The notes under the pieces are model-generated. The model made no database searches and was not told where the DNA came from. It saw only the letters and a program-made list of their open reading frames with translations. A DNA stretch of 40,333 bases from a virus, in IMG/VR virus record IMGVR_UViG_3300050126_000021, positions 1-40,333 of that record. One strand, 5' to 3'. A program made the position numbers and the translations under genes. This document shows positions 982-22,844 of the stretch, piece by piece. Positions within the stretch are counted from its first letter, which is position 1. The number at the start of each line of letters is the position of its first letter.

Positions 982-2268
982 TCACAACCAGCCCCATTCT
1001 TTTAGCTGGGCCATGTCCTTGTTCACCCGCTCGCCGATGTCTGTCCGGTATTGTTTGCCGGCTACGTTTATCTTGTCAAGCAGTCTGTACACTCGCCGCC
1101 GAGCTTCGTAGGTGTAGTCGGTGGAGCGCTCACTGCCTTCGCGGACTGATCCGATGGCAGTTGCTTTCAGCAACACCCCGTCACCGGCGGCGGTCCTGTA
1201 GCCGTCGTCGTCGCGATAGATGTCAGTAAGGAACAGGTGCGGGAGAGTGCTGTCATTTATGCCGGTGACAGGCTCTCCATGGGTGTCCTTGTCAGGCTTT
1301 CTCGCCGGCCACGGCGGGACGCTGAGCCGGACAGCGATCATTGTGTCATCTGTCAGCTTGACCTGTCTCTCCGCTCCGGTGGCGATATCCCATAAGAAGT
1401 CTCCAGCTGGCTCCTCAAGCCCTTCAATAAGCGCCTCCACTGCGTCATATCCCATCCGCGATGTTGCTTCAAGAGCGTAAGCTGTATCGGGTGTGACGAT
1501 ACAGTTGACATCAAGCGGTCCACGGTAGGAGATGTGAGCGAGGAAGCCGGCGAGTTTAGCAACGGTTTCCTTGACCAGAGTATCACCGCCATTAGCGTTC
1601 ACTACCACGTTGCCCATGCAGCCGACTGTCTGGCCCAGGTTCCCCGCCAGGAACTTCTTCTCCTCGAACGTGTGGTTGAACGGGGTCAGGAACCTCCGTC
1701 CGTTGAACCATCCCTCGGTGGACACCTCTATGCCACTCACAACTCGCTGGAGAATGCCAGTCGAGTCGGGGGAGAGTTGCTTCAAGCTGCGCTGCCACAG
1801 GGTCTGGTCTTTCACCACCATTGTCTTGTTGGTCGAGATGTTGCCGTTGGGCTTGATTACCCAGCCTGTTTGCCATTCTAGATTTCCTATGATCTTGTCT
1901 GCCTCGGCGGTTGAGGAGAAGTCGTGTGTTTCGGGGATGGCTAGTCCGGCAGTGGTGAACAGGCGCATCCCTGCGGAGCGATCAAGCTCGATCTTGTCAA
2001 GGATAGGTGAGCAGCCAAGAACAGGCTTGTTGAGCTTGGCGATGTCTGGCGCGAGGCGGGCAAGGCCGACGCAATCGATGATGATTAGATCAGCTTGTCG
2101 GGCGGCAGAGAGCCAGTCTATTGGCCTGCCGCAGATGCCTTCAAGTGCGCGCGAGAAGCGCTCGTCAGCAACCCAAACATCTACTTGATTACCTTCTAGC
2201 TGCAAGCGCTGCGCGACCCCGAGGCCGTCACCTTCCTTGCCCATGACGAGGATGCGGCGACTTGTCAC
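982..2268 (-). CDS. PurD-like (glycinamide ribonucleotide synthetase-like) ATP-grasp enzyme
   Basis: Colinear by-eye similarity to PurD in these blocks: RILVMGKEGDG, ELDRS..LF...GL.IPE, GWVIKPNG, EEKKFLAGNLGQTVGCMG, YRGPLDVNC, GDGVLLKATAIG, YRTDIG. The likely start is GTG 2268, which overlaps the TerL stop as GTGA. The alternative start is ATG 2244. Confidence 0.8.
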   Translation of the reverse strand: MTSRRILVMGKEGDGLGVAQRLQLEGNQVDVWVADERFSRALEGICGRPIDWLSAARQADLIIIDCVGLARLAPDIAKLNKPVLGCSPILDKIELDRSAGMRLFTTAGLAIPETHDFSSTAEADKIIGNLEWQTGWVIKPNGNISTNKTMVVKDQTLWQRSLKQLSPDSTGILQRVVSGIEVSTEGWFNGRRFLTPFNHTFEEKKFLAGNLGQTVGCMGNVVVNANGGDTLVKETVAKLAGFLAHISYRGPLDVNCIVTPDTAYALEATSRMGYDAVEALIEGLEEPAGDFLWDIATGAERQVKLTDDTMIAVRLSVPPWPARKPDKDTHGEPVTGINDSTLPHLFLTDIYRDDDGYRTAAGDGVLLKATAIGSVREGSERSTDYTYEARRRVYRLLDKINVAGKQYRTDIGERVNKDMAQLKEWGWL

Positions 2269-3860
2269 GAGAACTTCTCTGCAATCCCGTAGCGGGTGCT
2301 GCGCTTTTTGGTTCCTTCGAAGATGTATTCCCACGAAAATGGGTTGTCGCTTGGAGTGTTCTCGTTGACAGCGGGTGGCTGGGCTGTGGCGATCGTTGCT
2401 CGCTCAACACAGATTAGCGCATGTAGTGCAGCGAATACTCGGTCGTCGAAGCAGCCCGCGTCAGCCTCGTACTTGCCGGTTTTGCTTTCAACAAAGGTGT
2501 CCAGTTCGGAGCGAAGGGTTTCGCTGTGGATGGTGTATTCGCTGGATAGCAGCCGCCTGCCGGTTCCGAGCAACAATCCCCGAGTTGTTTCGCTTGTGTA
2601 GGTTCCGAAGTTGTTGAGCTGGCTGAGGATGACTTGTGATGGTGGTTGACCGGAAGTGGTGCCGCGATGCAGGCGGTCGAGGGGGTAGGAGCCAACAAGA
2701 ACGCTGATTGTGGTAAGGCCGTGATTGTTGCGCTCTGGATTGATGTAGGCCCAGTTGAAGCGCCGGCCTAGGCCATGAGCGATGTGGCCTAGCTCGTCAG
2801 GTGCGATGTCGTTCGCGACCCATTCGGCTACTTGTTCCCTAGTATCCAGGCAGAATATCTGGATGACACTGTTGTCTCGGCCGATCCCGCCGCCGACATC
2901 GATACCGGCAACATAACCATACTCGTGGCGAGGGTGGCCCTCCAGGCACCACAGCGCCTTGCTCTCCTGCACCCAGCGAGCTACTCGCTCGTGCTTTACG
3001 ACAGGGAAGAAGCTAAAGCCGGTGGACTGGAAGCATTCATCGAAGGTACGAGGATAGTTCTCTTTGAACTTGATCAAGTCTCCATCGTAGTCGGTGAAGA
3101 TGCGCTCCCGCCTCCAGGCGAGTTGCTGCGGAGACACGCCGATGTCGAACAGCTCGGGTTCTTCTAGATCAGGATCAAGCGTCTCCACAATTCTCTCAGC
3201 CTGTTCCTGGTTGAGAGATATGGCGCAAGTGTCGAGCCCGACCCAGGAGTAGAAGAATAGCTTGAAGCCGCTTCCGTTGCGGGCTCGGACTGCTTGGCGG
3301 TGAAACCAGTTGCCGCGGCCGTTGCCAGTGGACTCGACAGTGATCTCTCCAAGCTCGGCGGCAGGGAACAATCCGCTGACTGTGTTCTCTGCGTCTGCAT
3401 AGAAAGCTGCCTCGCTGAGATGGAGATCGGTGATCGTGTCGCCTCGGCCGAAGTTGCGGCTGCCGGCGGTGCCGATCCAGAAGGTGCTGCCAGTTTCTTG
3501 GAATGAGAGCGCCTTCATATTGTCTGTGCCGATGCTTGGCCGCTTGACGCCTGGAGGGAGGCGAAGGTTGTTGACGATGAAGCGGGCGCGCTGTAGGAGA
3601 CGGGCTGTAGCGTCGGCCTCTGCACTGACAATGACGCAGCGCCGGTTCTGTTCGCCCAGGCACTTTGCCACGTAGCGGCCGATGACTAGCGTGCTGATCC
3701 CGGCGTGCTGGCGGATTTTAGTTACAAGGTTCCGCCGCGACCAGTTCGCATCTAGATCAGCCTGCTGCTCGTTCAGCTTAAAGTCGATCGCCGCCCCGAC
3801 ACGATCTACTACGCGGAAGGTATTCTCGATGACAAGGCGGTAGGGCGAGGGATGGAGCAT
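2265..3860 (-). CDS. terL: Terminase large subunit
   Basis: 531 aa with a KIRQHAGIST Walker-A-like block and DLHLSEAAF. Also has VESTGNGRGNWF, ENYPRTFDECF, nuclease-type GIDVGGG..DNSV and a C-terminal FDDRVFAAL. Confidence 0.9.
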   Translation of the reverse strand: MLHPSPYRLVIENTFRVVDRVGAAIDFKLNEQQADLDANWSRRNLVTKIRQHAGISTLVIGRYVAKCLGEQNRRCVIVSAEADATARLLQRARFIVNNLRLPPGVKRPSIGTDNMKALSFQETGSTFWIGTAGSRNFGRGDTITDLHLSEAAFYADAENTVSGLFPAAELGEITVESTGNGRGNWFHRQAVRARNGSGFKLFFYSWVGLDTCAISLNQEQAERIVETLDPDLEEPELFDIGVSPQQLAWRRERIFTDYDGDLIKFKENYPRTFDECFQSTGFSFFPVVKHERVARWVQESKALWCLEGHPRHEYGYVAGIDVGGGIGRDNSVIQIFCLDTREQVAEWVANDIAPDELGHIAHGLGRRFNWAYINPERNNHGLTTISVLVGSYPLDRLHRGTTSGQPPSQVILSQLNNFGTYTSETTRGLLLGTGRRLLSSEYTIHSETLRSELDTFVESKTGKYEADAGCFDDRVFAALHALICVERATIATAQPPAVNENTPSDNPFSWEYIFEGTKKRSTRYGIAEKFS

Positions 3861-3869
3861 TCGGGCTAG

Positions 3870-4217
3870 CTATCCCCAGGCTTCGATAGTGACATAGCAG
3901 CTTGAGGCGCAGATTAAGCTGAGCGTGTCGGCTGTGTTGGGAGCGACTAGCAAGGTCTGACCGCCGACCGGGAAGCTGGCACTGCCGTTTGTCACAGTTC
4001 CGCTTGGTACTGCTGCGTTGCCGTTGAAGTTGCCATAGGTAGGGATCACCGTCGGCGTCAGTCGGAAGAAGGTGCAGCTAGCCGGGAGGGTGTAGTTGGC
4101 GGGCGTTCCTGAGCTTAGGCTGACAACATCAACCCATGTTGGGGCGATGAGCATGTTGTCTACGGGGAAGCCTGTCCGCAGTGGCTGAGCTAGGCGACCG
4201 ACTACTGGAGTTGCCAT
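3870..4217 (-). CDS. Hypothetical beta-rich protein
   Basis: 115-aa ORF packed 10 nt upstream of terL. No signal peptide seen and no family recognised. Confidence 0.55.
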   Translation of the reverse strand: MATPVVGRLAQPLRTGFPVDNMLIAPTWVDVVSLSSGTPANYTLPASCTFFRLTPTVIPTYGNFNGNAAVPSGTVTNGSASFPVGGQTLLVAPNTADTLSLICASSCYVTIEAWG

Positions 4218-4227
4218 TGTGGTTCTC

Positions 4228-5001
4228 CTAGGGCCAACGTGCTGTTATGATAATAATTCCGGCGGCACCAGCGCCACCGGCATAGCCGCTTGCTCCAGCC
4301 GTACCGGCTGAGCCTGCTGCCCCTAGCGAATAACTGTAGGTGGCGGATAGCGATGAGATCATTACTTCAGCGCAAGCTCCCGCACCGCCGCCGCCACCGC
4401 CATAGGTAGTTGAGCCCACGCCAGCTCCACCAGAGCCGCCTGCGCCTGTATTTGGTATGCCAGCAGCACCCGCGCTGGCAGTTGTCGTCATTGGCCCCGC
4501 TCCACCGATACACGATCCCGCGCCTAACCCTCCGGATGTACCGCTCGTTACAACATTAGCATTCGTATCTGACCCGGTAGCGCCGTTCCAGCCAACAGCC
4601 GGCGACCCTGAAAGGGTGCCGCCTGCGCCGCCCGTCCCTAGCGTAGAGCCTGTGCCTTCTACTCCACCCGTTCCGCCTCCAGCGGTATAGCTGCCAAAGC
4701 TAGTATTGCCGCCATTACCGCCAGCGCTTCCGCCAGAAGTGCCACTCCCACCGCCGCCGCCACCTCCGCCAATAAATTCAACTTCAAGCGATGCAGGAAG
4801 AACGCTATTGCAGAGTGGAGTGGTGTACGTGCCAGTGCCTGAGGTGTATACTGTCCGTTGCGGCAGACATGGCACAATTTGCGATGACGGTATCCTTCGG
4901 TTGAGGTGTCCGTCCGGTGACGAGCTTAGAAAGTCTGCCTGAGCTGTAGCAGAGCAAGTTGAGAGTATTGCCCCAACAAGGAGCCAGTTGCACCACTTCA
5001 T
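4228..5001 (-). CDS. Exported glycine-rich-domain protein
   Basis: Sec-type signal peptide MKWCNWLLVGAILSTCSATAQA. The core YTSGTGTYTTP..ASLEVEFIGGGGGGGGSG and long G/A/S/T runs resemble the glycine-rich domain seen in phage fibre-like proteins. Confidence 0.7.
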   Translation of the reverse strand: MKWCNWLLVGAILSTCSATAQADFLSSSPDGHLNRRIPSSQIVPCLPQRTVYTSGTGTYTTPLCNSVLPASLEVEFIGGGGGGGGSGTSGGSAGGNGGNTSFGSYTAGGGTGGVEGTGSTLGTGGAGGTLSGSPAVGWNGATGSDTNANVVTSGTSGGLGAGSCIGGAGPMTTTASAGAAGIPNTGAGGSGGAGVGSTTYGGGGGGAGACAEVMISSLSATYSYSLGAAGSAGTAGASGYAGGAGAAGIIIITARWP

Positions 5002-5011
5002 TAGTCGGCTC

Positions 5012-5506
5012 CTAGTAGTCGTGACAGATTGCGACTATGTTGATCAGGTCGGTGCTGGTGATGGAGCTAGCGAAGGTGGCCTGGAGGGTGTCGCCGCTGG
5101 CCAGGATGAGGTAGGGGTTGCCGTCGCTGTCGAGTGGGAGGCCGGGCCAGTTGACGGCGCTCATTAGGTTCTGCGCCGGGGTGCCGCTGGCAAAGCCGGC
5201 ACTCTCGACCGAGGTTATCGCCATGCCGCCGTAGCGGACAGTCGAGCTGACGAGCTGCACGGTCAGGAGGTGGGTGGCGCTGGCGTCATTGTTGGTAGAC
5301 CAGAGTGCCTTGCAGATGCTGCCATTGGTGCCCCCGGTGTAGATGGTCTTGTAGGTGCCTGCACTGTCGGTTCCTTGAAGGAACTGGACAGTGCCGCGAT
5401 TAGGGGTTTGCGGGGTGACGTAGCTGTTCGGGCTGACAGCCGCCAGAGCAACTTGGGTGTGCAGAAGTGCTGCAATGCTAGCAGCAGCGAGCAGGCGTTT
5501 GAGCAT
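5012..5506 (-). CDS. Exported hypothetical protein
   Basis: ATG 5506 lies 7 nt after GGAGG. Signal peptide MLKRLLAAASIAALLHTQVALA. The start overlaps the upstream stop as TGATG. Confidence 0.65.
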   Translation of the reverse strand: MLKRLLAAASIAALLHTQVALAAVSPNSYVTPQTPNRGTVQFLQGTDSAGTYKTIYTGGTNGSICKALWSTNNDASATHLLTVQLVSSTVRYGGMAITSVESAGFASGTPAQNLMSAVNWPGLPLDSDGNPYLILASGDTLQATFASSITSTDLINIVAICHDY

Positions 5507-5661
5507 CACAAACCTCCAAAGTTGACGCCGGCGAGGGCGGTACTGGCACGGTTGCGGGCGGTAGTGTCGGATGTCGGAACGAATTGAGCCTGAGCAGGTG
5601 GGTCGCAGTAGTGCAACAGCCAGATGGTCAGGAGTGCTGTTACTAGGAACCACCCTCTCAT
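5506..5661 (-). CDS. Small exported protein ending in NFGGL
   Basis: ATG 5661 follows GGAGGG. The 51-aa product has signal peptide MRGWFLVTALLTIWLLHYCDPPAQA and C-terminus AGVNFGGL. Confidence 0.5.
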   Translation of the reverse strand: MRGWFLVTALLTIWLLHYCDPPAQAQFVPTSDTTARNRASTALAGVNFGGL

Positions 5662-5662
5662 C

Positions 5663-6013
5663 TCACAGCCCTCCGAAGTTTCCAACAGCGTTGATGGCAA
5701 TGTAGCGAACATGGAGTGTCGTGTTGCTGTTGGTGGAGTAGAACTCGCTTCCTAGGCTGGCGGCGATCGGGACGGCTGTTGAGTTGGTGAGGTTGGCGAT
5801 AAAGGTCATTGCACTTATTGCTGCTAGCTGGGTGACAGATAGCGAGCCGCCTAGATTGCTGAATGCGGGCTGTTTGCAGGTAGCGTTGCTTGGATAACCG
5901 TAGGCGTTGAGCCATTGGTTAGTTGGGCAGGTGCTGCTCTGCGACCACGCAGCGACAGCTACTAGTCCTAGAACTGCAACTGCGAAGCAGGTTATGGCAG
6001 CGAGGCGGCGCAT
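5663..6013 (-). CDS. Exported hypothetical protein ending in NFGGL
   Basis: 116 aa with signal peptide MRRLAAITCFAVAVLGLVAVAA. Several N-x-S/T motifs are present. The C-terminus is AVGNFGGL. Confidence 0.65.
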   Translation of the reverse strand: MRRLAAITCFAVAVLGLVAVAAWSQSSTCPTNQWLNAYGYPSNATCKQPAFSNLGGSLSVTQLAAISAMTFIANLTNSTAVPIAASLGSEFYSTNSNTTLHVRYIAINAVGNFGGL

Positions 6014-6019
6014 TGGCGG

Positions 6020-6361
6020 CTAGAATAGTGCAACGACGGGGAGGACCATGCCGACTACCTGAGCTGCGATCTGGACCGCGTTAAGGACGCTGGAGAGCCA
6101 GGCAGGAGTGCTGGCTGTGGTTGTGGCAGGGGTCGTGCCGGCGGCGAGCTGAGAGCAGAAGGCCGCGCCATAGGTGGCGATCTGGCTGACGGCCGCCGGA
6201 GCAGTTGAGGCTGTAGCGGCTGCAAGGATTGGGGCTGCGGTTGAGCAGGACTGTTGAAGGCTGGCGACAGTGGAGGCCGTCACACTGGCCACAGTTGCCG
6301 GGGTTGTGCTGGAACAGCCGACAAGGCCGAGCAGGGCGATAGAGGTGAGGAGCTTCTTCAT
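6020..6361 (-). CDS. Lipoprotein with a C-terminal transmembrane helix (unimolecular-spanin-like architecture)
   Basis: MKKLLTSIALLGLVGC carries an L-V-G-C lipobox. The middle is Ala/Thr/Ser-rich. The hydrophobic C-terminus is IAAQVVGMVLPVVALF. Confidence 0.65.
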   Translation of the reverse strand: MKKLLTSIALLGLVGCSSTTPATVASVTASTVASLQQSCSTAAPILAAATASTAPAAVSQIATYGAAFCSQLAAGTTPATTTASTPAWLSSVLNAVQIAAQVVGMVLPVVALF

Positions 6362-6372
6362 GGCAGGATGTC

Positions 6373-6702
6373 CTATGATGCAGGGGTTGGGTCAGATGGA
6401 AGATGCAGCCAGGCGCCAAGGAAGTAGGTGAGGATCATTTGCTCGGCGGCGGCGACTGCGGGGGAGGTGTCGATGTGAAAGTAGGCCAGGATCGCGGAGG
6501 CAATCACGACACCTGCGGCAGCAAGGCCAGCCGAAGTTCCTGTGACGTGGACCGGAGAACTGGTTGAAACGGATTGGTAGGTTGTCGTTGTGCCGGCGGG
6601 AGAAGTTTCCTTTGTCGTAGTGGTGCTTGGAGCGCCAGGCGACGGCGGGAGAAGGCTGGGCTGTTGGGACAGGTCTCGGCCAAGGATGCTGCTGTCTGTC
6701 AT
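6373..6702 (-). CDS. Membrane protein (holin candidate)
   Basis: 109 aa with an S/T/P-rich N-terminus. One clear hydrophobic helix, GLAAAGVVIASAILAYF, and a weaker one, MILTYFLGAWL. ATGA-type overlap with the upstream gene. Confidence 0.55.
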   Translation of the reverse strand: MTDSSILGRDLSQQPSLLPPSPGAPSTTTTKETSPAGTTTTYQSVSTSSPVHVTGTSAGLAAAGVVIASAILAYFHIDTSPAVAAAEQMILTYFLGAWLHLPSDPTPAS

Positions 6703-7031
6703 CTGTTGTGCGCCTCAATTTGGTTGGCGTGAAAGACTTGCTGGAAAGTCTGCATGCCGAGATAGCCGAGGATTGCTAGGAGGATCGCGATCAACATTCC
6801 GCGTTGCCACCAGAGGTTCTTGATATTCTGCTCGTGTTGTTCATTGCGGGCTTCCGTGATGTTATCTAGCTTCTCGTACAGTCGGCGGATGCCCTCCCGA
6901 ACTCGCTTGATCTCGCGCTTGGTCTCCCGGCGGACTTCCAGACAGTCTCGTAGGTGATGCTCGAACTGTGTCTCTATCGCTAGGGATCGAGCTGTCACGT
7001 CGGCTTGGTGCTGCGTCACTCCTTCCGGCAT
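6699..7031 (-). CDS. Coiled-coil protein with a C-terminal transmembrane anchor
   Basis: ATG 7031 lies 9 nt after AAGGAG. A charged helical N-terminal region is followed by GMLIAILLAILGYLGM. Confidence 0.65.
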   Translation of the reverse strand: MPEGVTQHQADVTARSLAIETQFEHHLRDCLEVRRETKREIKRVREGIRRLYEKLDNITEARNEQHEQNIKNLWWQRGMLIAILLAILGYLGMQTFQQVFHANQIEAHNR

Positions 7032-7560
7032 GAGGCAGGTCTCCTTGCTCGATGTTCACGTTGACGGTGAGGTTGGTCTGGAGCATTGCCGCAACTACGG
7101 CTTCGGCTGTCAGCGTGCCGTTTGCTTCCTCGGACTTACCATAAGCACCGAAGCCGGCAGCCTTGAAGAACTGCTCGCTGGCACGGAGAGCTACGTTGTT
7201 GTCTCGCATGTCATTGAGACCGCGCCTTAGGGCTGCCACGGCGAGCGGCTTCATGCTGATGAACTCGTCGTCAGCTTCCTTCAACCTCTCGGAGCGCCGG
7301 GCGATGTAGCGAGGATTGTTGCGGATCATCGACACTCGCTGCGGCGTCATGCCGAGCTTGCCTCCGATGTCAGCTGCTGTTAGTCCGCGCAGGTCGAGTG
7401 TCAGGATCATCTCCCAACGAGTGCTGATCGGGCGACCGTTGAGAGTGTTACCTACTGGCGGCCTTGGGTTGTTTGCTAGAAACCGAGCAGAGTTGTCTGG
7501 TCGCTGCTTCTGCTCATGTCTAGCGTCGAACAGCTCGCGCAGCTCACTTACCACTGACAA
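6862..7560 (-). CDS. HTH protein, putative terminase small subunit or late regulator
   Basis: HTH-like LRGLTAADIGGKLGMTPQRVSMIRNNP, then the helical block AVAALRRGLNDMRDNNVALRASEQFFKAAGFG, which is typical of small terminases. The start is TTG 7560 or GTG 7554, after AAGGAG. The last ~170 nt overlap the next gene in another frame. Confidence 0.5.
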   Translation of the reverse strand: MSVVSELRELFDARHEQKQRPDNSARFLANNPRPPVGNTLNGRPISTRWEMILTLDLRGLTAADIGGKLGMTPQRVSMIRNNPRYIARRSERLKEADDEFISMKPLAVAALRRGLNDMRDNNVALRASEQFFKAAGFGAYGKSEEANGTLTAEAVVAAMLQTNLTVNVNIEQGDLPHAGRSDAAPSRRDSSIPSDRDTVRASPTRLSGSPPGDQARDQASSGGHPPTVREAR

Positions 7561-7729
7561 GTTCCGGCTCCTTGATAGCAGGTTCCCGCGTGGCTTGCTC
7601 GGCGATCTGACGGGCAAGGTCCGGGCGCAGCCTGCCGAAATCGCTGTCGAGTAGGCGGGCAAGGAGCCTGTCGGTGGCGTTGTTGCCGATGGCCGGGCGC
7701 TGATCCATGCAGGTAATATAGGCTGTCAA
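7544..7729 (-). CDS. Small hypothetical protein, first ORF of the long late operon
   Basis: Track ORF starts at TTG 7729, with an in-frame ATG at 7708. The helical charged sequence looks protein-like. Confidence 0.4.
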   Translation of the reverse strand: MTAYITCMDQRPAIGNNATDRLLARLLDSDFGRLRPDLARQIAEQATREPAIKEPELVSGK

Positions 7730-7743
7730 GGGGGAAGTGTCTA
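7715..7743 (-). promoter_or_regulatory. Candidate sigma70-like promoter for the late arm
   Basis: On the minus strand, TAGACA (7743-7738), a 17-nt spacer, then TATATT (7720-7715). The ATG at 7708 would sit at about the predicted transcript start. Confidence 0.3.
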
Positions 7744-7776
7744 GTGTGGTGGTGGCCGGTGCGAGGCCAGGGCGAA

Positions 7777-7790
7777 GTGATTACATTATC
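7777..7790 (+). promoter_or_regulatory. Copy A of the conserved intergenic motif GTGATTACATTATC
   Basis: The core TGATTACATTAT also occurs at 12643-12654 (+) and 38909-38920 (-). All three copies are intergenic. Confidence 0.6.
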
Positions 7791-7826
7791 GCTACAACCA
7801 GGTGTAGGTGCCAGTTGAAGTTAGAA

Positions 7827-7847
7827 ATATATATATACCCCTAGGGG
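7827..7847. repeat. (AT)5A run directly abutting the 10-bp palindrome CCCCTAGGGG
   Basis: Read directly from the sequence. It is the only long AT run I noticed, in an otherwise GC-rich window. Confidence 0.8.
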
Positions 7848-7914
7848 GTCTCCACCCCCGGCATAGCAGCTAACCAGCTCACCCGAAGGCAAGCTGGCTG
7901 CTGTCGCTGGTGAG

Positions 7915-8127
7915 TTAGCTAGATGGGGCTAGCCGCTGACTGGGCGGCGTCGAGTTGGCTAGGACCCACAGCTGTTCCAACACCACCTCCTCAATAACGT
8001 GGACAGCTGCCATAAGCTCGGCACTGTCCACCTCGATACCGGTGAGGAGGAGTAGAACATCGTTAAGCTGTAAAAGTACCGGATTGATAGCTTGCCTGAT
8101 ACTCTCACGATCCTTGGCACTGAACAT
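7915..8127 (-). CDS. Small hypothetical protein
   Basis: ATG 8127 lies 6 nt after AGGAG. The 70-aa helical-looking product overlaps ORF 7959..8303 in another frame. Confidence 0.4.
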   Translation of the reverse strand: MFSAKDRESIRQAINPVLLQLNDVLLLLTGIEVDSAELMAAVHVIEEVVLEQLWVLANSTPPSQRLAPSS

Positions 8128-10346: not shown

Positions 10347-10649
10347 ATGTCCAAAATCAACATCAGCGATCAAAAGGAGCGTGCGGTTCTGGTGACTACC
10401 GTCCATCGCGGGGTATTCTTCGGTTATGCCACCGAAACGGATGGCGATACCATCAAGCTTCGGCGCGCTCGCAATTGTGTCTATTGGCCGGCCGAGAATC
10501 ATGGCTTCCTTGGCCTCGCTGCTGAAGGCCCCAAAAAAGGTGCGCGAGTCGGCCCGGCTGCGGATATTGAGCTTCGCAATATCACTTGCGTAGCCGAATG
10601 CTCAGCCGCTGCGATCGACGCATGGGAAGCTGGGCTATGGTCGCGATAA
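10347..10649 (+). CDS. Hypothetical protein
   Basis: ATG 10347 follows AAGGAGAG. 100 aa. No family recognised. Confidence 0.6.
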   Translation: MSKINISDQKERAVLVTTVHRGVFFGYATETDGDTIKLRRARNCVYWPAENHGFLGLAAEGPKKGARVGPAADIELRNITCVAECSAAAIDAWEAGLWSR

Positions 10650-10888
10650 TTCGAGGCGACGGCTATGGCTCCAGCTTCGGCGACGGCGACGGCTCCGGCT
10701 ATGGCGATGACTATGGCTCCGGCTACGGCGATGGCTCCGGCTACGGCGATGGCAACGGCGATGGCTACGGCAACGGCTCCGGCTGTGGCTCCGGCTACGG
10801 CGACGGCGACGGCTACGGCTACGGCTCCGGCTACGGCTCCGGCTACGGCGACGGCTCCGGCAACGGCTCCTCTCAAGATATCGTTTGA
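10637..10888 (+). CDS. (Gly-X)n repeat protein, with X mostly Tyr/Asp/Ser/Asn
   Basis: ATG 10637 overlaps the upstream gene end. After MVAIIR, almost every second codon is GGC. The protein is acidic with no basic residue after the N-terminus. Confidence 0.5.
   Translation: MVAIIRGDGYGSSFGDGDGSGYGDDYGSGYGDGSGYGDGNGDGYGNGSGCGSGYGDGDGYGYGSGYGSGYGDGSGNGSSQDIV
10655..10870. repeat. About 216 bp of degenerate 6-nt (GGC-NNN) tandem repeat
   Basis: Read directly. Three track ORFs on both strands run through it, as expected of a low-complexity repeat. Confidence 0.9.
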
Positions 10889-10900
10889 AAAGGGAAAATC

Positions 10901-11128
10901 ATGTCCAAAACCACCCGAATCGCTGCCGCAGCGGTTGGCGAGCTCTTGAACCGTGGCGAGGTCGCGCTCGTCCAATGGTTACTGGGCCAGGACAACTCTA
11001 GGATCACTAGAGCCTTCCTCCTAGCCGAATGGGAGAATATGTGGCAGGGCAGGTCAGTCTATCTCGCCATGCTGCATCAGTGCCACGAAGATGTAGAGAG
11101 GTCGATACGATGCTCCCTGATGAGATAA
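10901..11128 (+). CDS. Hypothetical protein
   Basis: 75-aa ORF. ATG follows AAGGGAAAA. Confidence 0.5.
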   Translation: MSKTTRIAAAAVGELLNRGEVALVQWLLGQDNSRITRAFLLAEWENMWQGRSVYLAMLHQCHEDVERSIRCSLMR

Positions 11129-11195
11129 GCCTAATCTGGCTCGCCTACTTTCTAATCGCCTGCTGGGCAATCTATGGCATATGGAGAAACACACG

Positions 11196-11498
11196 ATGAC
11201 AGACGATGCGACGCCGCGAGAGACAACTAGTACCAACTGGCGCAAGCCAACAGCGGGTGAACTGCTGTCTTTGCAAATAATAGCCGGGAGCCTAACAGTC
11301 ATGGCAGCCGAAATCGCCGGCATGACTGACGCTGACATCATCGTGATCGGCCTTGAAATGGCCGCTATGGCAATCAACGCCGGGCAATTTGATCCTGCCC
11401 AAGCAGACTTGCTTGCGGGCCAGTTCCTCACAGAACGGATTGTCAGCTACAGCAAGGCAGCCGCCGAGCAGGCTGCGAAGAAACAGGAGAAGGAATGA
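11196..11498 (+). CDS. Hypothetical protein
   Basis: ATG 11196 lies 8 nt after GGAGA (track start 11181 lacks an SD). About 100 aa. Confidence 0.55.
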   Translation: MTDDATPRETTSTNWRKPTAGELLSLQIIAGSLTVMAAEIAGMTDADIIVIGLEMAAMAINAGQFDPAQADLLAGQFLTERIVSYSKAAAEQAAKKQEKE

Positions 11499-13786: not shown

Positions 13787-15088
13787 ATGAACGATCCAGC
13801 CACCAACGAGCTGCTAGACAAACTAGCAACCGTCGTGCAGGAGCACAATAATCCTGCTCCGCGCCAGCTCACTAGAGCTGAACAAGCTGCCAAGACCAGC
13901 CAACAAACCACGTCAGAGCTGCCTACTCAAGCAGGTCCTCTCGGCATCCGGTTTGACTTTAACGAAGGCTGCCGCATCTACCTGCCGACCCTCGCTGAAG
14001 GCTTCTATCGTGTCCGCATCCGTGACCTGGATACAGGAAACACGTTGATCGACACGGGAGATTACAAAGGCGGCTGGGTGCGATCCTCTCGCCTCTACTA
14101 CTCTCGCTTCTGCATTGAGATCAAGGTGGGCGAGGAAGGCAGCAGTGACGGAAAGACCCTGATCCTGCGCCATGACTACGATCCGACAGGCAGAGACATC
14201 CTTATCAATCTCCCTCCTGGCACCCTCGGCGACAGCATCGGCTGGTTCAGCTACGTGCCACAGTGGCTAGTTGAGCATCCAGGGTCAAAGCTAACCTGCC
14301 GCATCCAGCGTCGCATGATCCCGTTGTTCTCTCCAGGCTATCCAGATATCACCTTCCTCCCGTGCGAGGAATCGCTAGACGCCTCCAAGGGCTACTATGC
14401 GACCTATCACCTCGGCCTGTTTTACAAAGACACCGAACATGTCTGCGCGCCATGTGATCACCGTCTAGTAGGGTTACATCGCACCGCAGCCTACATCTTA
14501 GGTCTCGACCCTCTAGAACACCGGCCACGCATCCAGCCGGACTTTAAAGGTCGTCCAATCGAACAACCCTACGTCTGTATCGCCACCCAAGCCACAACTC
14601 AGCCGAAGTATTGGAACAATCCAACAGGCTGGATAGAGCTGATTGCCTGGCTAAAGGAGCAAGGCTACCGTGTCATCTGCATCGATGCAGTGAAGGCTCA
14701 TGGTGACGGTACTCACTACAACACTATCCCTTGGGGCTGTGAGGACCAGACCGGAGATCGCCCGCTCATAGAGCGAGTGCGCTGGTTGCGACATGCAGAG
14801 TTCTTTGTCGGCCTTAGTAGTGGGCTATCATGGCTTGCTTGGGCTGCCGGGTGTCCTGTTGTCCTCATCAGTGGCTTCACGCATCCAATCAATGAGTTCT
14901 ACACGCCCCACCGTGTTATAAACTACCACACCTGCAACTCCTGCTGGAACGACAGCCGGCATGATTTCGACAACAACGATTTCCTGTGGTGCCCCCGCCA
15001 CGCAGGAACAAGTCGCCAGTTCGAATGCACCCGGCTGATCACTACAGACCTAGTGAAGCGAGTTATCCAGCCACTGCTGAAACACTAA
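13787..15088 (+). CDS. TibC/Aah-family (autotransporter-type) protein O-heptosyltransferase homolog
   Basis: Near full-length block similarity recalled from TibC/Aah. Shared blocks include PTQAGP, FDFNEG, GTLGDSIGWFSY and QPYVCIATQATTQPKYWNNPTGW. Also IPWGCEDQTG..PLIERV.WL.HAEFFVGLSSGLSWLAWAAGCPVVLISGF, EFYTP.RV.N, a C-x2-C-x15-C-x11-C cluster and FECTRLIT. Confidence 0.8.
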   Translation: MNDPATNELLDKLATVVQEHNNPAPRQLTRAEQAAKTSQQTTSELPTQAGPLGIRFDFNEGCRIYLPTLAEGFYRVRIRDLDTGNTLIDTGDYKGGWVRSSRLYYSRFCIEIKVGEEGSSDGKTLILRHDYDPTGRDILINLPPGTLGDSIGWFSYVPQWLVEHPGSKLTCRIQRRMIPLFSPGYPDITFLPCEESLDASKGYYATYHLGLFYKDTEHVCAPCDHRLVGLHRTAAYILGLDPLEHRPRIQPDFKGRPIEQPYVCIATQATTQPKYWNNPTGWIELIAWLKEQGYRVICIDAVKAHGDGTHYNTIPWGCEDQTGDRPLIERVRWLRHAEFFVGLSSGLSWLAWAAGCPVVLISGFTHPINEFYTPHRVINYHTCNSCWNDSRHDFDNNDFLWCPRHAGTSRQFECTRLITTDLVKRVIQPLLKH

Positions 15089-17076: not shown

Positions 17077-17547
17077 ATGGGCATCAATCCAACAGCCTTC
17101 CGCCACGCGATCATTCGTCCGGTGTTACTGCATCTTGAAGAACATGCAGGCATCTCGCACACTCCAGCAGCGGAGGACTTGCTGATGATCACCGCTGCGC
17201 TGGAAAGCTCGCTAGGCTCCTTCCTGCCTGTCTATGGCATGACTGATGCGATGATAGGTGAGCTGGATGACAGCTTCATCACACCCAGCCCACGCTTCAA
17301 GCCGGCAGTAGCTGGGCTGCTCGCCAGCACGATCCCGCTTCGCCTTCAATGCATGTGGAACCTCTACGCGGCCACGGCCACAGCTCGGCTCTGGTACTAC
17401 CGCGTCAAGTCTCCGTTGCCAGACGGAGACAATCTCCGCGATCTGCTTCAATACTACGAAACCAATTTCACTGGCCAGTCAACTAGCGACCTCCGTTGGA
17501 ACCAAGCATTGCAGCTAACCGACTTGATAGGAGATCATCATGCCTAG
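17077..17547 (+). CDS. Hypothetical protein adjacent to the endolysin
   Basis: 156 aa, no TM segment. Its stop overlaps the endolysin start. Confidence 0.55.
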   Translation: MGINPTAFRHAIIRPVLLHLEEHAGISHTPAAEDLLMITAALESSLGSFLPVYGMTDAMIGELDDSFITPSPRFKPAVAGLLASTIPLRLQCMWNLYAATATARLWYYRVKSPLPDGDNLRDLLQYYETNFTGQSTSDLRWNQALQLTDLIGDHHA

Positions 17548-18241
17548 CAAAGGCTTCGACACAGACACGCCACTGACCCAGGCGGCTATCACCGCAGCTA
17601 AGTCAGCAGGATACATCGCCGCCGGACGCTATCTCAAGAACCTGACACCAGCAGAAGTAGCTCTCTGCTCCAAGAACCAGTTCGGCCTGTGGCTAATCTT
17701 TGAAGGTGAAGGGAGTCAAGAGACCTTCCAAGAGGGCAATCAACGCGGAAAGGCTGACGGAGCTACCGCCTACCAACAGGCAAAAGCTCTCGGCGTCCCG
17801 CCCGGCTGCACGATCTTCTTCGCTGTGGACTATGACGCGCTAGCTGGCGACATAGCTAAAATCACAGACTACGCCACCGGCTTCGTCAGCAACCTCGGAG
17901 AATACAAGTACGGTGTCTACGGCGACGGAACTGTGCTAAGCTCTCTACCCGACGCTCCAGGCTACGTAGCCGGCGCTGATGGTTGGGATGGCACAGAAGC
18001 CTATCTAGCCACCGGCAAGGCAGCTCTGATCCAGCACGCCACGGTCGAGCTAGCCGGGATCAGCATGGACCCAGTAGACATCATCAAAACAGACGTGCTG
18101 TGGGTTCCTGAGGCGTCAGCCACCACTACACCAATCCCAACCGCCGCGCAGCTTCAGGCAGCGCTAGGCATCTCCACCGATGGCATTTGGGGTCCACAAT
18201 CCCAAGCAGCTCTGGCCTCCTACTATGCCAAGCAAGATTAA
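17540..18241 (+). CDS. Endolysin: DUF1906/Rv2525c-like glycoside-hydrolase-like domain plus a C-terminal peptidoglycan-binding repeat
   Basis: GFDTDTPLT..AGYIAAGRYL, LWLIFEG and IFFAVDYD match the DUF1906 pattern. The C-terminal LQAALGISTDGIWGPQSQAALASYY matches PG_binding_1. Confidence 0.7.
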   Translation: MPSKGFDTDTPLTQAAITAAKSAGYIAAGRYLKNLTPAEVALCSKNQFGLWLIFEGEGSQETFQEGNQRGKADGATAYQQAKALGVPPGCTIFFAVDYDALAGDIAKITDYATGFVSNLGEYKYGVYGDGTVLSSLPDAPGYVAGADGWDGTEAYLATGKAALIQHATVELAGISMDPVDIIKTDVLWVPEASATTTPIPTAAQLQAALGISTDGIWGPQSQAALASYYAKQD

Positions 18242-19558: not shown

Positions 19559-19781
19559 ACACGCAATCGATCTGCGCGGGCAGCAATTCGGCCGGCTTCG
19601 CGTCATCCGACGCAGCTACTTCCCTTCTCGCCACAGGGAAATATACTGGTACTGCAAGTGCACCTGCGGGAAACTCACTCATGTTATAGGACGAGAGCTG
19701 CGCCGGGGACGTACAAAGAGCTGCGGCTGTCTACAACGTGAGTGCGCTGCTGCGGTTGGTCGTGCTAGGAAGAAAGCATGA
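19551..19781 (+). CDS. Small zinc-ribbon protein
   Basis: ATG 19551 overlaps the upstream stop. Contains GQQFGRLRVI...YWYCKCTCG...SCGCL. Confidence 0.55.
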   Translation: MPRHAIDLRGQQFGRLRVIRRSYFPSRHREIYWYCKCTCGKLTHVIGRELRRGRTKSCGCLQRECAAAVGRARKKA

Positions 19782-21481
19782 CACGCTGGATTGAAAGCGG
19801 CGATCCACGCTCCCCGGTTTGGATCATCGCCGAGGCTCCAGGCGAGGATGAAATCCGCCAGGGCCGTCCGCTTGTCGGACAGAGTGGACAAGAGCTTGAC
19901 CGCTGCCTGCGTGATGCTGGCTGGCCTCCAGATTTCCAGTTCTTTCGTACCAACATCTGCCATCAGCGCCCGCCATCCTACCAGAACAAGTATGGAAAGT
20001 GGATACATAATGATATTGAGCAATTCTTCGTCAGTCGTGCGGAAGCTAAAAGGTCCGATGTACGAGAACTACTTGGTAGGTTTCCACTTGATCCTGTCAC
20101 AGAAGGAATTGATCGACTTAGCAACCATCTTCAACACTTCCGGCCTACACTCATTATCGCTCTCGGAGGAATTTCGCTGTGGGCGTTGGGCGGTAAGGAA
20201 GGTATCCTTAAATGGAGAGGAAGTATTCTCTCTACGGAGAGTGGGATCAAAGCCATCTCCACCCTCCACCCCGCCGACATCCTCTACCAGTGGCAGCACC
20301 GGCCACTTCTAGTCCAAGACCTTCGCCGGGCGCTGCGGGAGAGCAAGTATTCCGAGATCAGGAGACCAACATGGAATTTCGTGATCGCTCCTACTATCGC
20401 TGATCTTCGAGACTGGCTGTTACCGTGTATCGAGCGCAGACAGCCACTGGTATGCGACACGGAAGGATGGGGAGTGGTAGACTGCGTTGGTTTCGCCGCC
20501 AACAGCAAAGATGCCATCTGCGTACCATTTGTCCGCGAAGCTGGACAGCTCACAACCTATTTCACGCCGGGCGATGCCGAGCAGGCAATGAGCCTGTGTA
20601 CCGCGGCCCTGCGCCAGTGTCCCGTAACGTTTCACAACGCCACCTGGGACTGTCAAGTAATCGCCCGCCGCTGGGGAATGCTGCCGAACCTAACTGATGA
20701 CACAATGGTAATGCAACACGCCTTGTTCCCCGGACTACTTGGCGGAAAGATTGATCCGACTACTGGGACAGTTGAGAAGAAAGGTTCTTCCCTCAGTCTC
20801 TCCTTCATCGCCTCAATGTATTGTGAATACTACTCTTACTGGAAAGATGACGGACGAGTACGCGGTGATAATTACGACGATGACACATACTGGAAATATA
20901 ACTGTGAGGATTGTGTACGCACATACGAGTGTAGAGAGGTTCTTACAGAGGCTCTTAGAAGTGCCGGCCTGGAGGAGCAATACAGGTTTCTGATGTCCTT
21001 GTTTGCTCCAGTCCTGTCAATGATGTTCCGAGGAATGCGCCTGGACAGGGAGCGTGTTAAAGACATCAAGAACAGCATTGTCAAACAGCGAGCTGATCAA
21101 CAACAATGGCTAGACACCGCTGTAGGCTTCCCGCTCAACGTCGGCAGTGCGCCTCAGGTCCACAGCTTGTTCTACGACGACTTGCGGCAGCAGAAAGTTC
21201 TCCACCGCTCAACCCGCAAGCCTAGTGTTGACGACACCGCGCTTGAGACCATCGCGCGCCGTCAACCTCTGCTACTGCCACTCTGCCGCACAATCCAGAA
21301 CATCCGCTCCCTCAACACCAATGAGCGGAATTTCGTGGCGGCTGCGGAGAAGGCTAAAGACCGCCTCTACACCTGCTTAAACATCACCGGCGCAGAAACA
21401 TTCCGTTTCAGCTCAAACGAGACTGCGTTCGGCGAGGGATGTAATCTACAGAACCTCACCAGACCACCGGAGGATCAATGA
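19778..21481 (+). CDS. DNA polymerase A part 1: UDG-like domain, 3'-5' exonuclease and N-terminal polymerase region
   Basis: UDG motifs are IIAEAPGEDE..GRPLVGQSG and LHPADIL. Exonuclease motifs are LVCDTEG, FHNATWDCQV and YNCEDC. The ORF ends just after the TG..RFSS....NLQNL block. Confidence 0.85.
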   Translation: MTRWIESGDPRSPVWIIAEAPGEDEIRQGRPLVGQSGQELDRCLRDAGWPPDFQFFRTNICHQRPPSYQNKYGKWIHNDIEQFFVSRAEAKRSDVRELLGRFPLDPVTEGIDRLSNHLQHFRPTLIIALGGISLWALGGKEGILKWRGSILSTESGIKAISTLHPADILYQWQHRPLLVQDLRRALRESKYSEIRRPTWNFVIAPTIADLRDWLLPCIERRQPLVCDTEGWGVVDCVGFAANSKDAICVPFVREAGQLTTYFTPGDAEQAMSLCTAALRQCPVTFHNATWDCQVIARRWGMLPNLTDDTMVMQHALFPGLLGGKIDPTTGTVEKKGSSLSLSFIASMYCEYYSYWKDDGRVRGDNYDDDTYWKYNCEDCVRTYECREVLTEALRSAGLEEQYRFLMSLFAPVLSMMFRGMRLDRERVKDIKNSIVKQRADQQQWLDTAVGFPLNVGSAPQVHSLFYDDLRQQKVLHRSTRKPSVDDTALETIARRQPLLLPLCRTIQNIRSLNTNERNFVAAAEKAKDRLYTCLNITGAETFRFSSNETAFGEGCNLQNLTRPPEDQ

Positions 21482-21678
21482 CTGCCATCAAAGATGCAGC
21501 TTTCCTAACCGACTGGGCAAGCAAAATAGCCATCAATCGACGCAGTAGCTTGCCGCTCCGTGTGGTCCGGTACATTGAAGCAATTCAGCACATGGACCAT
21601 GAGCAGCTTTGCCTGTTTCTTGCCCTGGCCCTAATCATCGGGCATTTCGAGCTGCCACCGTTTCCAGATGAGGAATAG
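21478..21678 (+). CDS. Hypothetical protein (between the polymerase halves)
   Basis: 66 aa with an ATGA overlap with polymerase part 1. Confidence 0.5.
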   Translation: MTAIKDAAFLTDWASKIAINRRSSLPLRVVRYIEAIQHMDHEQLCLFLALALIIGHFELPPFPDEE

Positions 21679-22045: not shown

Positions 22046-22239
22046 GCGGATCATTTGCCGGCTTCAAGTCTCGCAAGGGCGAGGAACTTCGGCTGGATGC
22101 TTCCCAGCTAAATCAGCGTATCGACATCATCCGGAGAAACGGGACGGTGGTGTTCAGTGTACATGAGGAGGAAGCACGCAACCTAGTTCTAGCCTTGAAG
22201 CTACACTTCGAATACAACTGCTGGGAGTGGCCGACGTGA
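22042..22239 (+). CDS. Hypothetical protein (between the polymerase halves)
   Basis: 65 aa with an ATGA overlap. Confidence 0.5.
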   Translation: MSGSFAGFKSRKGEELRLDASQLNQRIDIIRRNGTVVFSVHEEEARNLVLALKLHFEYNCWEWPT

Positions 22240-22844
22240 GCATCTTGATCATTGACACCGAGACAACTGGTGTAAACCCTCGCGAGGCGAGGATAGTTCA
22301 ACTGGCAGCCTATCACATGGGCGATGGTCCAGCATGGCCTTTTCTCGGGCAGCTCAATGAGATCATCCGGCCACAGGGCTTTATGATCCCCGAGGAGGCC
22401 ACAGCCATCCACGGGATAGATCAAGACACAGCCCTTCGCAAAGGCCGTCCACTCGCCAGCGTGCTTGATCAGCTCCATGCGCTAGCAGTCGAAGCCTTCT
22501 CCGACAATCTCGACCCCTGGCTGGTCGCGCACAATCTCAACTACGACTTCGCCGTACTCTGTCACGAGTTCGAGCGGATAGGTGCTTCCTCCTACGCCCT
22601 GACACGTCTCTTTCCCATGTGCACAATGCAAGCAATGACCCGGAGATGTAATCTCCCCGGCAAGTACCCCGGAAAGCCAAAGTGGCCTAAGCTACAGGAA
22701 GCCTACACGTTTTGCTTCCCCGAAGGGTACACCAGCACAGACATTGCTCAGGCCCACACTGCAATGGGAGATGTGCTCAAGTGCCGAGATATCTACAAAC
22801 ACGGCTGGGAGCAAGGATGGTGGGGTAGCAAGGTAGGACAGTAA
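22227..22844 (+). CDS. DnaQ/epsilon-like DEDDh 3'-5' exonuclease
   Basis: ExoI is LIIDTETTG, ExoII is HNLNYDFAVL and ExoIII is HTAMGDVLKCRDI. Starts at GTG. Confidence 0.8.
   Translation: MADVSILIIDTETTGVNPREARIVQLAAYHMGDGPAWPFLGQLNEIIRPQGFMIPEEATAIHGIDQDTALRKGRPLASVLDQLHALAVEAFSDNLDPWLVAHNLNYDFAVLCHEFERIGASSYALTRLFPMCTMQAMTRRCNLPGKYPGKPKWPKLQEAYTFCFPEGYTSTDIAQAHTAMGDVLKCRDIYKHGWEQGWWGSKVGQ

Follow-up and report, generated by a model that had tools for sequence, protein, structure and literature searches.

Tail-fibre-type proteins of phages are assumed to fold, and to join virions, in the cytoplasm. Phages are also known to carry genes for exported, envelope-targeted proteins, several of them receptor-blocking, beside tail-fibre or lysis genes (Llp of T5, Cor of phi80 and N15, Lom and Bor of lambda, Z/fun of P2). 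In T7 the record gives the order 17 (fibre), 17.5 (holin), 18 (the small terminase subunit, TerS), 18.5/18.7 (Rz/Rz1-type spanins) and 19 (the large terminase subunit, TerL), and the endolysin (the gp3.5 amidase) is encoded far off, among early and middle genes. Unimolecular spanins (u-spanins) are defined by an N-terminal lipobox together with a C-terminal transmembrane (TM) domain (PMC6139136; Kongari et al., 2018). Here we analyze IMG/VR virus record IMGVR_UViG_3300050126_000021 (positions 1 to 40,333, the whole stretch being referred to below as the window), in which an island of eight small genes, g1 to g8, separates a helix-turn-helix (HTH) gene from the gene for TerL. The explanation that we favor, which we put at about an even chance, is that this island is composite, with a lysis half (g1–g3), a mobile cassette of exported proteins (g4–g7) and a further gene, g8, that stands apart from both.

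Signal peptides and TM helices were predicted by rules of our own, combining Kyte-Doolittle hydropathy with von Heijne-type recognition of the n-h-c regions and the AxA cleavage site, and 59 genes were scored. This heuristic flagged the consecutive genes g3 to g7, as well as one low-complexity open reading frame (ORF) at 10586–10888, a doubtful call that was set aside. The probability that five signal-like genes would be consecutive by chance is approximately 55/C(59,5), or 1e-5. Genes g4 to g7 each show the full n-h-c pattern, with a positive n-region, a hydrophobic h-region and small residues at positions -3 and -1. An earlier note on this DNA had described seven of the eight island proteins as membrane or exported, and this character was borne out by the signals in g3–g7, that of g6 being backed by conservation that starts at its cleavage site.

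The protein encoded by g6 belongs to a family of at least 377 clusters (clustered at 90% identity), all of about 162 aa and 60–77% identical to g6, which carry no Pfam domain and lie on contigs that reach 95 kb. Conservation of g6 exceeds that of the terminase in the nearest relative found. In alignments of the family the first 20–25 residues vary yet keep signal character, and conservation starts at ALA↓AVTPNS (the arrow marks the predicted cleavage site); 115 of 117 homologues were flagged as signal-bearing, and the cysteines C65 and C161 are at least 90% conserved. A signal peptide that varies freely in front of conservation beginning at the AxA site strongly suggests that in this family the signal peptide is cleaved and that export is real. 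Searches with the g6 protein, and likewise with g7 and g8, returned nothing from the 50,697 deposited phage records that formed our comparison set, and g6 matched no Pfam, PHROG or NCBIfam family.

An AlphaFold2 model of g6 (predicted local distance difference test score, pLDDT, of 92) consists of a single jellyroll behind the signal helix. Against PDB structures the model showed a weak, generic jellyroll likeness to phage cement proteins and to Ena spore-appendage subunits (template-modelling scores of 0.35–0.5), and against predicted viral structures it resembled small virion, minor-tail and fibre-tip domains. A g6 profile search of PDB sequences gave no match. These structural matches, and those of g7 described below, are suggestive, not diagnostic. 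The GC content at third codon positions (GC3) is 0.79 in g6, compared with 0.58–0.70 in the other genes measured and 0.48 in g7, a contrast that may reflect recent horizontal acquisition of the cassette.

To place g6 in its genomic surroundings, we compared nine contexts: the window and the loci L024, L026, L027 (in which the cassette occurs twice), L028, L031, L033 and L034. All nine share one order, in which an exported fibre ending in GG(L/I/V) is followed by a g6-like gene and then by another exported protein. The upstream gene bears a signal and tail-fibre repeats and varies from 51 to 1254 aa in length; the g6-like gene starts 0–3 nt from its stop, and the signal-bearing downstream gene adjoins the g6-like gene in eight contexts, lying approximately 440 nt further on in L026. 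The backbones that carry this arrangement include a P2-like myovirus with Baseplate_J and PAAR genes (L033), a GTA-like siphovirus (L027), a P22-like podovirus (L034) and other podoviruses. The GGAGG Shine-Dalgarno site of the g6-like gene falls within the two Gly codons near the end of the upstream gene (junctions at 5506 and 5661 in the window, 8001 in L024, 8001 in L026, 10001 and 14264 in L027, and 10001 in L028), and a ribosome-binding site within the last codons of the fibre gene implies translational coupling. Downstream of the g6-like gene, mature N-termini often carry a motif resembling [ST]xP[DG][SG]R[PM][RHK][PA]G, which may be a docking peptide. Examples are SSSPDGHLNRR in g7 (within residues 23–40), TPDSRMRAG in L033, GPGSRPHAG in L034 and MPDQRPKAG in L028 (Table 1). 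The distal domain that follows is variable, being glycine-rich in the window, L031 and L028. The proteins encoded next to g6-like genes are Cys-rich, and exported neighbors include proteins with pectate-lyase-like and GH54-like domains.

A fibre without a signal peptide coexists with the cassette in the window, L033, L034 and L028, which points to the cassette being accessory to a main fibre. In the window this fibre is a probable receptor-binding protein and lies outside the island; its N-terminal 140 aa are 51% identical to the counterpart in the related genome L001 and its C-terminus has diverged, the pattern typical of fibres. The window itself holds a minimal version of the cassette, comprising four genes (g4–g7) in 1.8 kb. 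Both the g6 family and the exported fibre-like cassette appear to be undescribed; limited literature searches, on exported tail-fibre-like phage proteins and on PF21722, turned up no description.

Two further observations concern the surroundings of the cassette. L028 encodes at 14147–14437 a small protein with a PEP-CTERM signal (a weak Pfam match, with a VPEP motif, a TM helix and a basic tail), which hints at host exosortase systems. At 13787–15088 (plus strand) the window encodes a protein of 433 aa that combines a TibC N-terminal domain (E 1.2e-16) with a glycosyltransferase family 9 domain (E 4.8e-9). We take it to be related to the heptosyltransferases by which autotransporter adhesins are glycosylated in the cytoplasm, prior to their export, and it could modify the Ser/Thr-rich exported proteins of the island or the virion fibres. 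No TibC-like glycosyltransferase was found in the other cassette loci, which span only about 10 kb on each side.

The remaining proteins of the cassette also have fibre-like features. The earlier note had regarded the four secreted proteins as non-lytic in appearance and had given them no kin; they can no longer be called anonymous, since g6 and g7 belong to a widespread fibre-like cassette and g4 has one tail-fibre repeat (QPAFSNLGGSLSVTQL). In addition to this repeat, g4 has a two-Cys loop and the C-terminus NFGGL. Its residues 27–71 match an internal repeat of a 544-aa exported fibre of L037 (47% identity), and its plan of signal peptide, two-Cys loop and NFGGL end is shared with a 107-aa protein of the myovirus L033. 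A search of 5.8 billion proteins matched g4 to itself only, and IMG/VR scans for relatives of g4 and of g1 gave no further loci. The very short g5 probably represents the 3′ end of a fibre gene, either as a remnant or as a second copy, and carries the Shine-Dalgarno site for g6.

In g7 the signal peptide and the short N-terminal motif precede a Gly_rich_2 tail-fibre-type domain. Residues 47–257 align end to end with homologues at 34–49% identity (E 1e-21 to 1e-31). Most of these homologues have fibre-like N-termini without a signal peptide, several carry PF21722, and signal peptides are found in 20 of 117 aligned g7-type sequences, g7 included. A Pfam search with g7 itself gave no match up to E 0.1 and did not reach the PF21722 threshold; the protein P0005 scored 25.5 bits against PF21722, for which the cut-off is 24.3. 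The AlphaFold2 model of g7 had a pLDDT of 90, and its nearest solved structures, all weak matches, were chain Q of the Bxb1 tail tip (9d93) and the fibre of cyanophage Pam3 (7ypx/7yfw), with E values of about 6e-3 and template-modelling scores of 0.2–0.4. A sequence profile of g7 reached only E ~0.1 against PDB, again to Pam3 fibres. Both g7 and g4 lack a tail-attachment N-terminal domain and have a signal peptide in that position.

We then compared the island with the corresponding interval in related genomes. L001 (TerL 61% and major capsid protein 72% identical) has the HTH gene and homologues of g1 (35% identity, directly after the HTH gene) and g8, and none of the rest of the island. In their place it has three other genes whose large products all carry export signals: a fibre-repeat protein of 698 aa, one of 320 aa containing a GH54-like segment (E 7e-9), and the product of an 837-aa ORF; for the last of these, an internal start, MKKLTRRSVIASAAAA, looks like a twin-arginine translocation signal. 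L037, a relative identified through g8, encodes a two-TM protein, a lipoprotein and a TM protein, then g8, then exported proteins of 544, 310 and 880 aa. In L005 (TerL 41% identical) tailspike-like proteins that lack signal peptides share this interval with a small beta protein and one containing a coiled coil. In L022 the g8 homologue lies just before a protein that matches PHROG tail-protein families (best E 2e-13), and next comes a 510-aa protein that reads like a beta-helix tailspike. Comparison with related phages had been proposed as a way to see whether the block is an indel, and it proved to be replaceable: L001 keeps g1 and g8 only, and L005 has tailspike-like genes instead. These comparisons mark g1 and g8 as genes of the clade and g2–g7 as a cassette that can be replaced; the clade uses the interval following the HTH gene as a slot for variable host-envelope or host-interaction genes.

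The last gene of the island, g8, is 57% identical to its homologue in L001, 61% in L022 and 50% in L037, each of them next to fibre or tail genes, and its family comprises about 80 representative clusters. The heuristic found no signal peptide or TM helix in g8. It is a conserved gene of the clade that accompanies fibre genes and lies outside the exported set.

At the other end of the island, g1–g3 encode membrane proteins which, from their architecture and context, are probably the membrane half of a lysis system. The lipoprotein signal of g3 reads MKKLLTSIALLGLVG followed by CSS, giving a lipobox of LVG↓C with Ser at +2, and six-frame scans of the whole genome found no other credible lipobox ORF. 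At its extreme C-terminus lies a Kyte-Doolittle segment with a mean of 2.1 (residues 89–113), and between the two a predicted periplasmic linker of about 72 aa is of low complexity, rich in Ala, Thr and Ser, with two cysteines (Cys39 and Cys69). Lipid-anchored at its N-terminus and held by an inner-membrane helix at its C-terminus, g3 would bridge both membranes as a unimolecular spanin does. We regard it as an evenly balanced question whether g3 is the spanin, and we rate any specific role of g1 or g2 in lysis below that. The suspicion in the earlier note that part of the island may be a lysis cassette was justified insofar as g1–g3 look lysis-type, g3 being u-spanin-like.

Tail-anchored behind a coiled coil, g1 is a candidate holin or antiholin-type lysis regulator, and proteins built like g1 are encoded in L024 (144 aa) and L031 (191 aa), in each case within the lysis cassette. 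For g2, which had no homologue among the fetched loci and is a weak holin candidate, the C-terminus is acidic or neutral. The candidate endolysin has an Rv2525c-type glycoside-hydrolase-like domain, a C-terminal segment that looks like a peptidoglycan-binding motif, and a position among the replication genes; no holin or spanin gene was found beside it among the neighbors inspected. In L037, positions 33–767 encode three proteins: one of 65 aa with two TM helices, a lipoprotein of 116 aa, and one of 62 aa whose TM helix is N-terminal. The lipoprotein has the lipobox LAAC, two cysteines and an Ala/Ser/Thr-rich composition like that of g3, and no C-terminal TM helix. A lipoprotein encoded alongside separate TM proteins suggests that g3 might be the fusion-type equivalent of a two-component pair.

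The HTH gene heads the same operon in L001 (39% identity) and L005 (by alignment), and in both it is the first gene of that operon and is always parted from TerL by a variable block. Its sole recognizable part is a LuxR/FixJ-type HTH (a PDB profile match to the FixJ DNA-binding domain, E 1.4e-3), and it matched no TerS family in Pfam, PHROGs or NCBIfam. The earlier label of TerS is therefore left with the HTH and the position of the gene as its sole basis. By exclusion its product is the best TerS candidate, and it could equally be a late regulator. The accompanying premise, that small and large terminase genes are normally adjacent, was unsafe, because T7 places Rz/Rz1-type spanin genes between TerS and TerL; a separation of the two would not be exceptional even if the HTH gene is TerS. 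Genes between terminase genes should not be called anomalous before T7-type layouts have been checked. The HTH ORF also runs 170 nt into g1 in another frame (6862–7031). This tail is unconserved and rich in Ser, Pro, Arg and Asp, and the conserved part stops at about 7031, exactly at the ribosome-binding site of g1. The corresponding overlap amounts to about 100 nt in L001 and to almost nothing in L005.

Taken together, our preferred explanation of the composite island would run as follows. In lysis, g1 and/or g2 would act as holin or antiholin, g3 would link the inner and outer membranes, and the endolysin would be supplied from its remote gene. After export, signal cleavage and disulfide formation, the products of the cassette would assemble in the periplasm, with g4/g5 as a mini-fibre, g6 as the connector and g7 as the distal binder. 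The resulting fibre-like complex would act on the glycans or receptors of the infected cell's envelope, by masking, by exclusion or by blocking the re-adsorption of progeny to debris. On this view the complex would stay separate from the virion, for which a probable fibre lacking a signal peptide is encoded outside the island. Such a periplasmic receptor-binding complex is a plausible proposal that we rate somewhat short of an even chance. The pectate-lyase-like and GH54-like neighbors, the precedent of receptor-blocking genes beside fibre genes, and the g7-type domains that are mostly not exported all fit an action on the envelope, and superinfection exclusion or envelope remodelling, as suggested previously, is a reasonable idea.

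Several points weigh against this explanation. On the lysis side, none of the 58 catalogued u-spanins has periplasmic cysteines, and their periplasmic domains are mainly beta (PMC6139136), whereas the periplasmic part of g3 contains Cys39 and Cys69. In addition, g3 matched no PHROG family and is flanked by the membrane proteins g1 and g2, with the endolysin 11 kb distant on the other strand. The topology of g1 is opposite to that of an i-spanin. Holins typically carry a basic C-terminal tail, which g2 does not have, and other small TM proteins that could be holins are encoded at 7915–8127, 11029–11199 and 21478–21678. On the side of the cassette, the export of g4, g5 and g7 is predicted from the heuristic and by analogy with g6, and no homologues of g4 and g5 were found in which conservation of the cleavage site could be followed. 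Both may be decaying remnants, g4 being without a homologue and g5 tiny. The common GG[LIV] C-terminus may simply follow from the Shine-Dalgarno site that its codons contain. As to function, what the exported complex does is purely something that we infer. In a diderm host a Sec signal takes a protein no further than the periplasm, and most phage receptors face outward. Classical exclusion genes are expressed early or from prophages, whereas the island genes stand in a late operon.

Among the alternatives, it is unlikely that g4–g7 are virion fibres which are disulfide-bonded and mature in the oxidising periplasm and, once holin, endolysin and spanin have merged the compartments, dock at lysis onto finished particles as a segmented fibre consisting of a proximal piece, the g6 connector and the glycine-rich tip. 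The cassette lies among tail and fibre genes, is built as shaft repeats, connector and distal domain, and shares a late operon with structural genes. Cysteines are conserved in g6 and its neighbors are Cys-rich, and g8, which is found beside exported and non-exported fibres alike, could be a docking adaptor. The equivalent interval of L005 holds tailspike-like genes without signals, and fibre attachment in T4 is a late, spontaneous assembly step. However, 97 of the 117 aligned g7-type sequences have no signal peptide, so the domain folds without being exported. Mature g7 has approximately 25 residues before the domain and no recognizable attachment domain, fibres without signals coexist in the same genomes, and docking after lysis would have to compete with rapid dilution. 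We know of no tailed-phage precedent for fibres that mature outside the cytoplasm. A similarly doubtful proposition is that a second fibre system, built outside the cytoplasm, exists in many uncultured tailed phages, whichever of the three morphotypes they belong to. If so, the shaft, the g6 connector and the distal binder would assemble in the periplasm, possibly docking through terminal peptides like pilus or Ena subunits, and the product would arm virions at lysis or decorate the infected cell; either would be a mode of phage morphogenesis or host manipulation of which we are not aware of any description.

We consider it improbable that most of the island is evolutionary debris gathered at a recombination hot spot, where g6 and g7 would hitch-hike as a mobile cassette that does not matter to this phage and g4 and g5 would be truncated remnants of what was once a long fibre gene. 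The solitary g4, with no other match among 5.8 billion proteins, and the 51-aa g5, which repeats the NFGGL-stop junction, have this appearance; the GC3 of g6 hints at recent transfer, and in the closest relative the slot is filled by entirely different genes. Against this, the ORFs are intact, have ribosome-binding sites and follow the codon bias of the phage in frame, strong purifying selection acts on g6 in hundreds of phages, and a similar short exported NFGGL protein occurs in an unrelated myovirus. Moreover, a 40-kb lytic genome rarely retains 1.8 kb of junk.

There is little to recommend the idea that the whole island is one lysis cassette, in which g4–g7 would be periplasmic effectors or regulators of lysis, such as disruptors of the outer membrane or of polysaccharide, or antiholin-like sensors. 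In L024, L026, L027, L031 and L034 the cassette adjoins canonical lysis genes, and in the window it comes directly after g1–g3. A precedent is RI of T4, described as an exported lysis regulator with a cleavable signal peptide (PMC8385771). Such adjacency is expected in any case, because late operons often end with fibre and lysis genes side by side; L033 has its cassette flanked by baseplate and fibre genes, and no lysis gene is close by, and the folds of g6 and g7 are of fibre or virion type, not those of an enzyme or a holin-binding protein. Finally, although the calls for g4–g7 came from heuristic rules and most g7-type proteins have no signal peptide, it is very improbable that the signals are start-codon artefacts or chance hydrophobic N-termini of cytoplasmic fibre proteins, given four consecutive n-h-c/AxA signals behind good ribosome-binding sites, g6 N-termini that vary freely yet keep signal character in 115 of 117 homologues with conservation from the cleavage site onwards, and the same signal pattern in neighbors across the nine contexts.

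The genome in the window is complete and circularly closed, as its first 127 nt (1–127) equal its last 127 nt (40207–40333), an assembler overlap, giving a closed length of about 40,206 bp (40.2 kb). It is a podovirus genome, judged from its gene layout (major capsid protein, SU10-type adaptor and internal virion protein), which in part resembles that of T7. On the minus strand the late operon extends from about 7.6 kb through the genome junction to 25.3 kb, in the order HTH gene, island, TerL, PurD-like ATP-grasp gene, portal (which straddles the junction), major capsid protein (phrog_9953, E 3e-40), SU10-type adaptor and virion proteins, and ends with an 842-aa internal virion protein bearing a transglycosylase domain. 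The plus strand from 8.6 to 25.3 kb carries early and replication genes, including a split DNA polymerase, a primase and an exonuclease. No similarity to the window at the DNA level was found among the deposited phage records, to any of which TerL is at most 30% identical; relatives of TerL in genomes reach at most 34% identity and are spread across phyla.

The eight genes of the island were as first described in their coordinates, lengths and protein features, and an independent automatic caller gave the same eight on a second public assembly of the same genome. They are all on the minus strand, spaced by -4 to +11 nt, with AGGAG or GGAGG Shine-Dalgarno sites at most of them, and the start of g2 overlaps the stop of g1 (ATGA), as does the start of g6 with the stop of g5. 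The length of g6 was taken from an internal ATG of a 213-aa ORF. Log-likelihoods computed from the phage's own codon usage peak in the annotated frame for all island genes. No convincing terminator was found inside the island, and promoter-like sites are grouped just upstream of the HTH gene, at 7715–7854. GC skew is raised at 5–7 kb, which would fit the Ala/Thr/Ser/Pro-rich composition of the encoded proteins. DNA repeats inside the island were short matches at chance level only, the repeat at the NFGGL-stop junction being too short for scoring. Searches of g1–g8 against Pfam, PHROGs, NCBIfam and PADLOC gave nothing meaningful. The coordinates of all features are collected in Table 1.

Table 1. 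Genes of the island, other genes of the window discussed in the text, and proteins of related loci that carry the N-terminal motif (arrows mark predicted cleavage sites).
Feature	Position	Strand	Description
g1	6699–7031	-	110 aa; N-terminal charged coiled coil; TM helix 78–97; tail-anchored
g2	6373–6702	-	109 aa; S/T/P-rich N-terminal half; hydrophobic segments 53–78 and ~82–100
g3	6020–6361	-	113 aa; lipobox LVG↓C; TM helix 89–113
g4	5663–6013	-	116 aa; predicted signal peptide AWS↓Q; predicted exported mini-fibre
g5	5506–5661	-	51 aa; predicted signal peptide AQA↓Q; 26-aa mature part ending NFGGL
g6	5012–5506	-	164 aa; signal peptide ALA↓A; single jellyroll
g7	4228–5001	-	257 aa; predicted signal peptide AQA↓D; glycine-rich domain ~47–257
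g8	3870–4217	-	115 aa; cytoplasmic, beta-rich; no hydrophobic segment
TerL	2265–3860	-	phrog_2, E 4.4e-17; 61% identity to L001
HTH gene (TerS-like candidate)	6862–7545	-	LuxR/FixJ-type HTH; start codon uncertain
Endolysin candidate	17540–18241	+	PF08924, E 2e-23
Probable canonical tail fibre	33564–34460	-	N-terminal part conserved with L001; no signal peptide
Motif-bearing protein, L033	10515–11612		
Motif-bearing protein, L033	9220–9999		
Motif-bearing protein, L034	8458–8988		
Motif-bearing protein, L028	10541–12712		
Motif-bearing protein, L027	10497–14261		

Some other features of the genome were observed. A PurD-like ATP-grasp ligase (982–2268, minus strand; TIGR00877, E 3.6e-14) is encoded between TerL and the portal gene, and the gene is kept in the same place in L001 (~11.7–12.9 kb) and L005 (11604–12770), an unusual presence within a packaging and head module. 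The DNA polymerase is encoded in two genes on the plus strand (19778–21481 and 22848–23702), each matching phrog_17, which are separated by small ORFs and a 3′–5′ exonuclease gene (22227–22844). At 10499–10975 both strands can be read as low-complexity repeats, of the GDGYG type on the plus strand and the AVAVAG type on the minus strand. Two other accounts of the membrane and exported genes were rejected. A PRD1-like membrane-containing virion does not agree with the capsid, portal, adaptor and terminase genes, which are caudoviral. A temperate-phage moron block does not agree with the position of the genes inside the late operon, and no integrase or recombinase family was among the Pfam matches of 42 other ORFs.

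The cassette matters because proteins of tail-fibre type here carry export signals, and do so across hundreds of metagenomic phages of different morphotypes. Knowing its function would add to the understanding of phage dealings with the cell envelope, whether through receptor masking, exclusion, release or the maturation of fibres in the periplasm, and would assign a role to a large block of viral dark matter. The copy in the window is the smallest known and would lend itself to cloning.

Compared with described systems, the lysis-type part of the island belongs to known kinds and is placed as in T7. The window is likewise a podovirus of about 40 kb with membrane lysis-type genes between the putative TerS and TerL, and its candidate endolysin is also remote from them. 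The T7 gap, however, holds a two-component embedded spanin and two small genes, whereas that of the window holds eight genes and a single u-spanin-like protein; the exported fibre-like cassette is without a counterpart in T7, with which no sequence similarity was detected. Like the u-spanin gp11 of T1, g3 has a lipobox and a C-terminal TM helix (113 aa compared with 133 aa), and its linker is long enough to cross the periplasm. It differs from u-spanins in its two periplasmic cysteines, its low-complexity linker, an endolysin that is not adjacent, and the lack of a family match.

For the cassette, the order of shaft, small protein and glycine-rich distal protein recalls gp34–37 of T4 and gp37–gp38 of T2 and S16. 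In contrast to the PF21722, Pam3 and Bxb1 fibres, g7 has a Sec signal peptide in place of a virion-attachment N-terminus. Ena appendages of Bacillus are likewise made of jellyroll subunits, which g6 matches weakly; here, unlike in Ena appendages and segmented fibres, all components bear signal peptides, and there is no sequence homology. With Llp, Cor, Lom, Bor and Z/fun the cassette shares a putative direction toward the envelope and a place beside tail-fibre or lysis genes, and several of those proteins block the phage's own receptor or exclude other phages. Each of them is a lone small lipoprotein or beta-barrel, and most are expressed early or from prophages, whereas the cassette is a multi-gene late unit that spans the morphotypes and has no sequence similarity to any of them.

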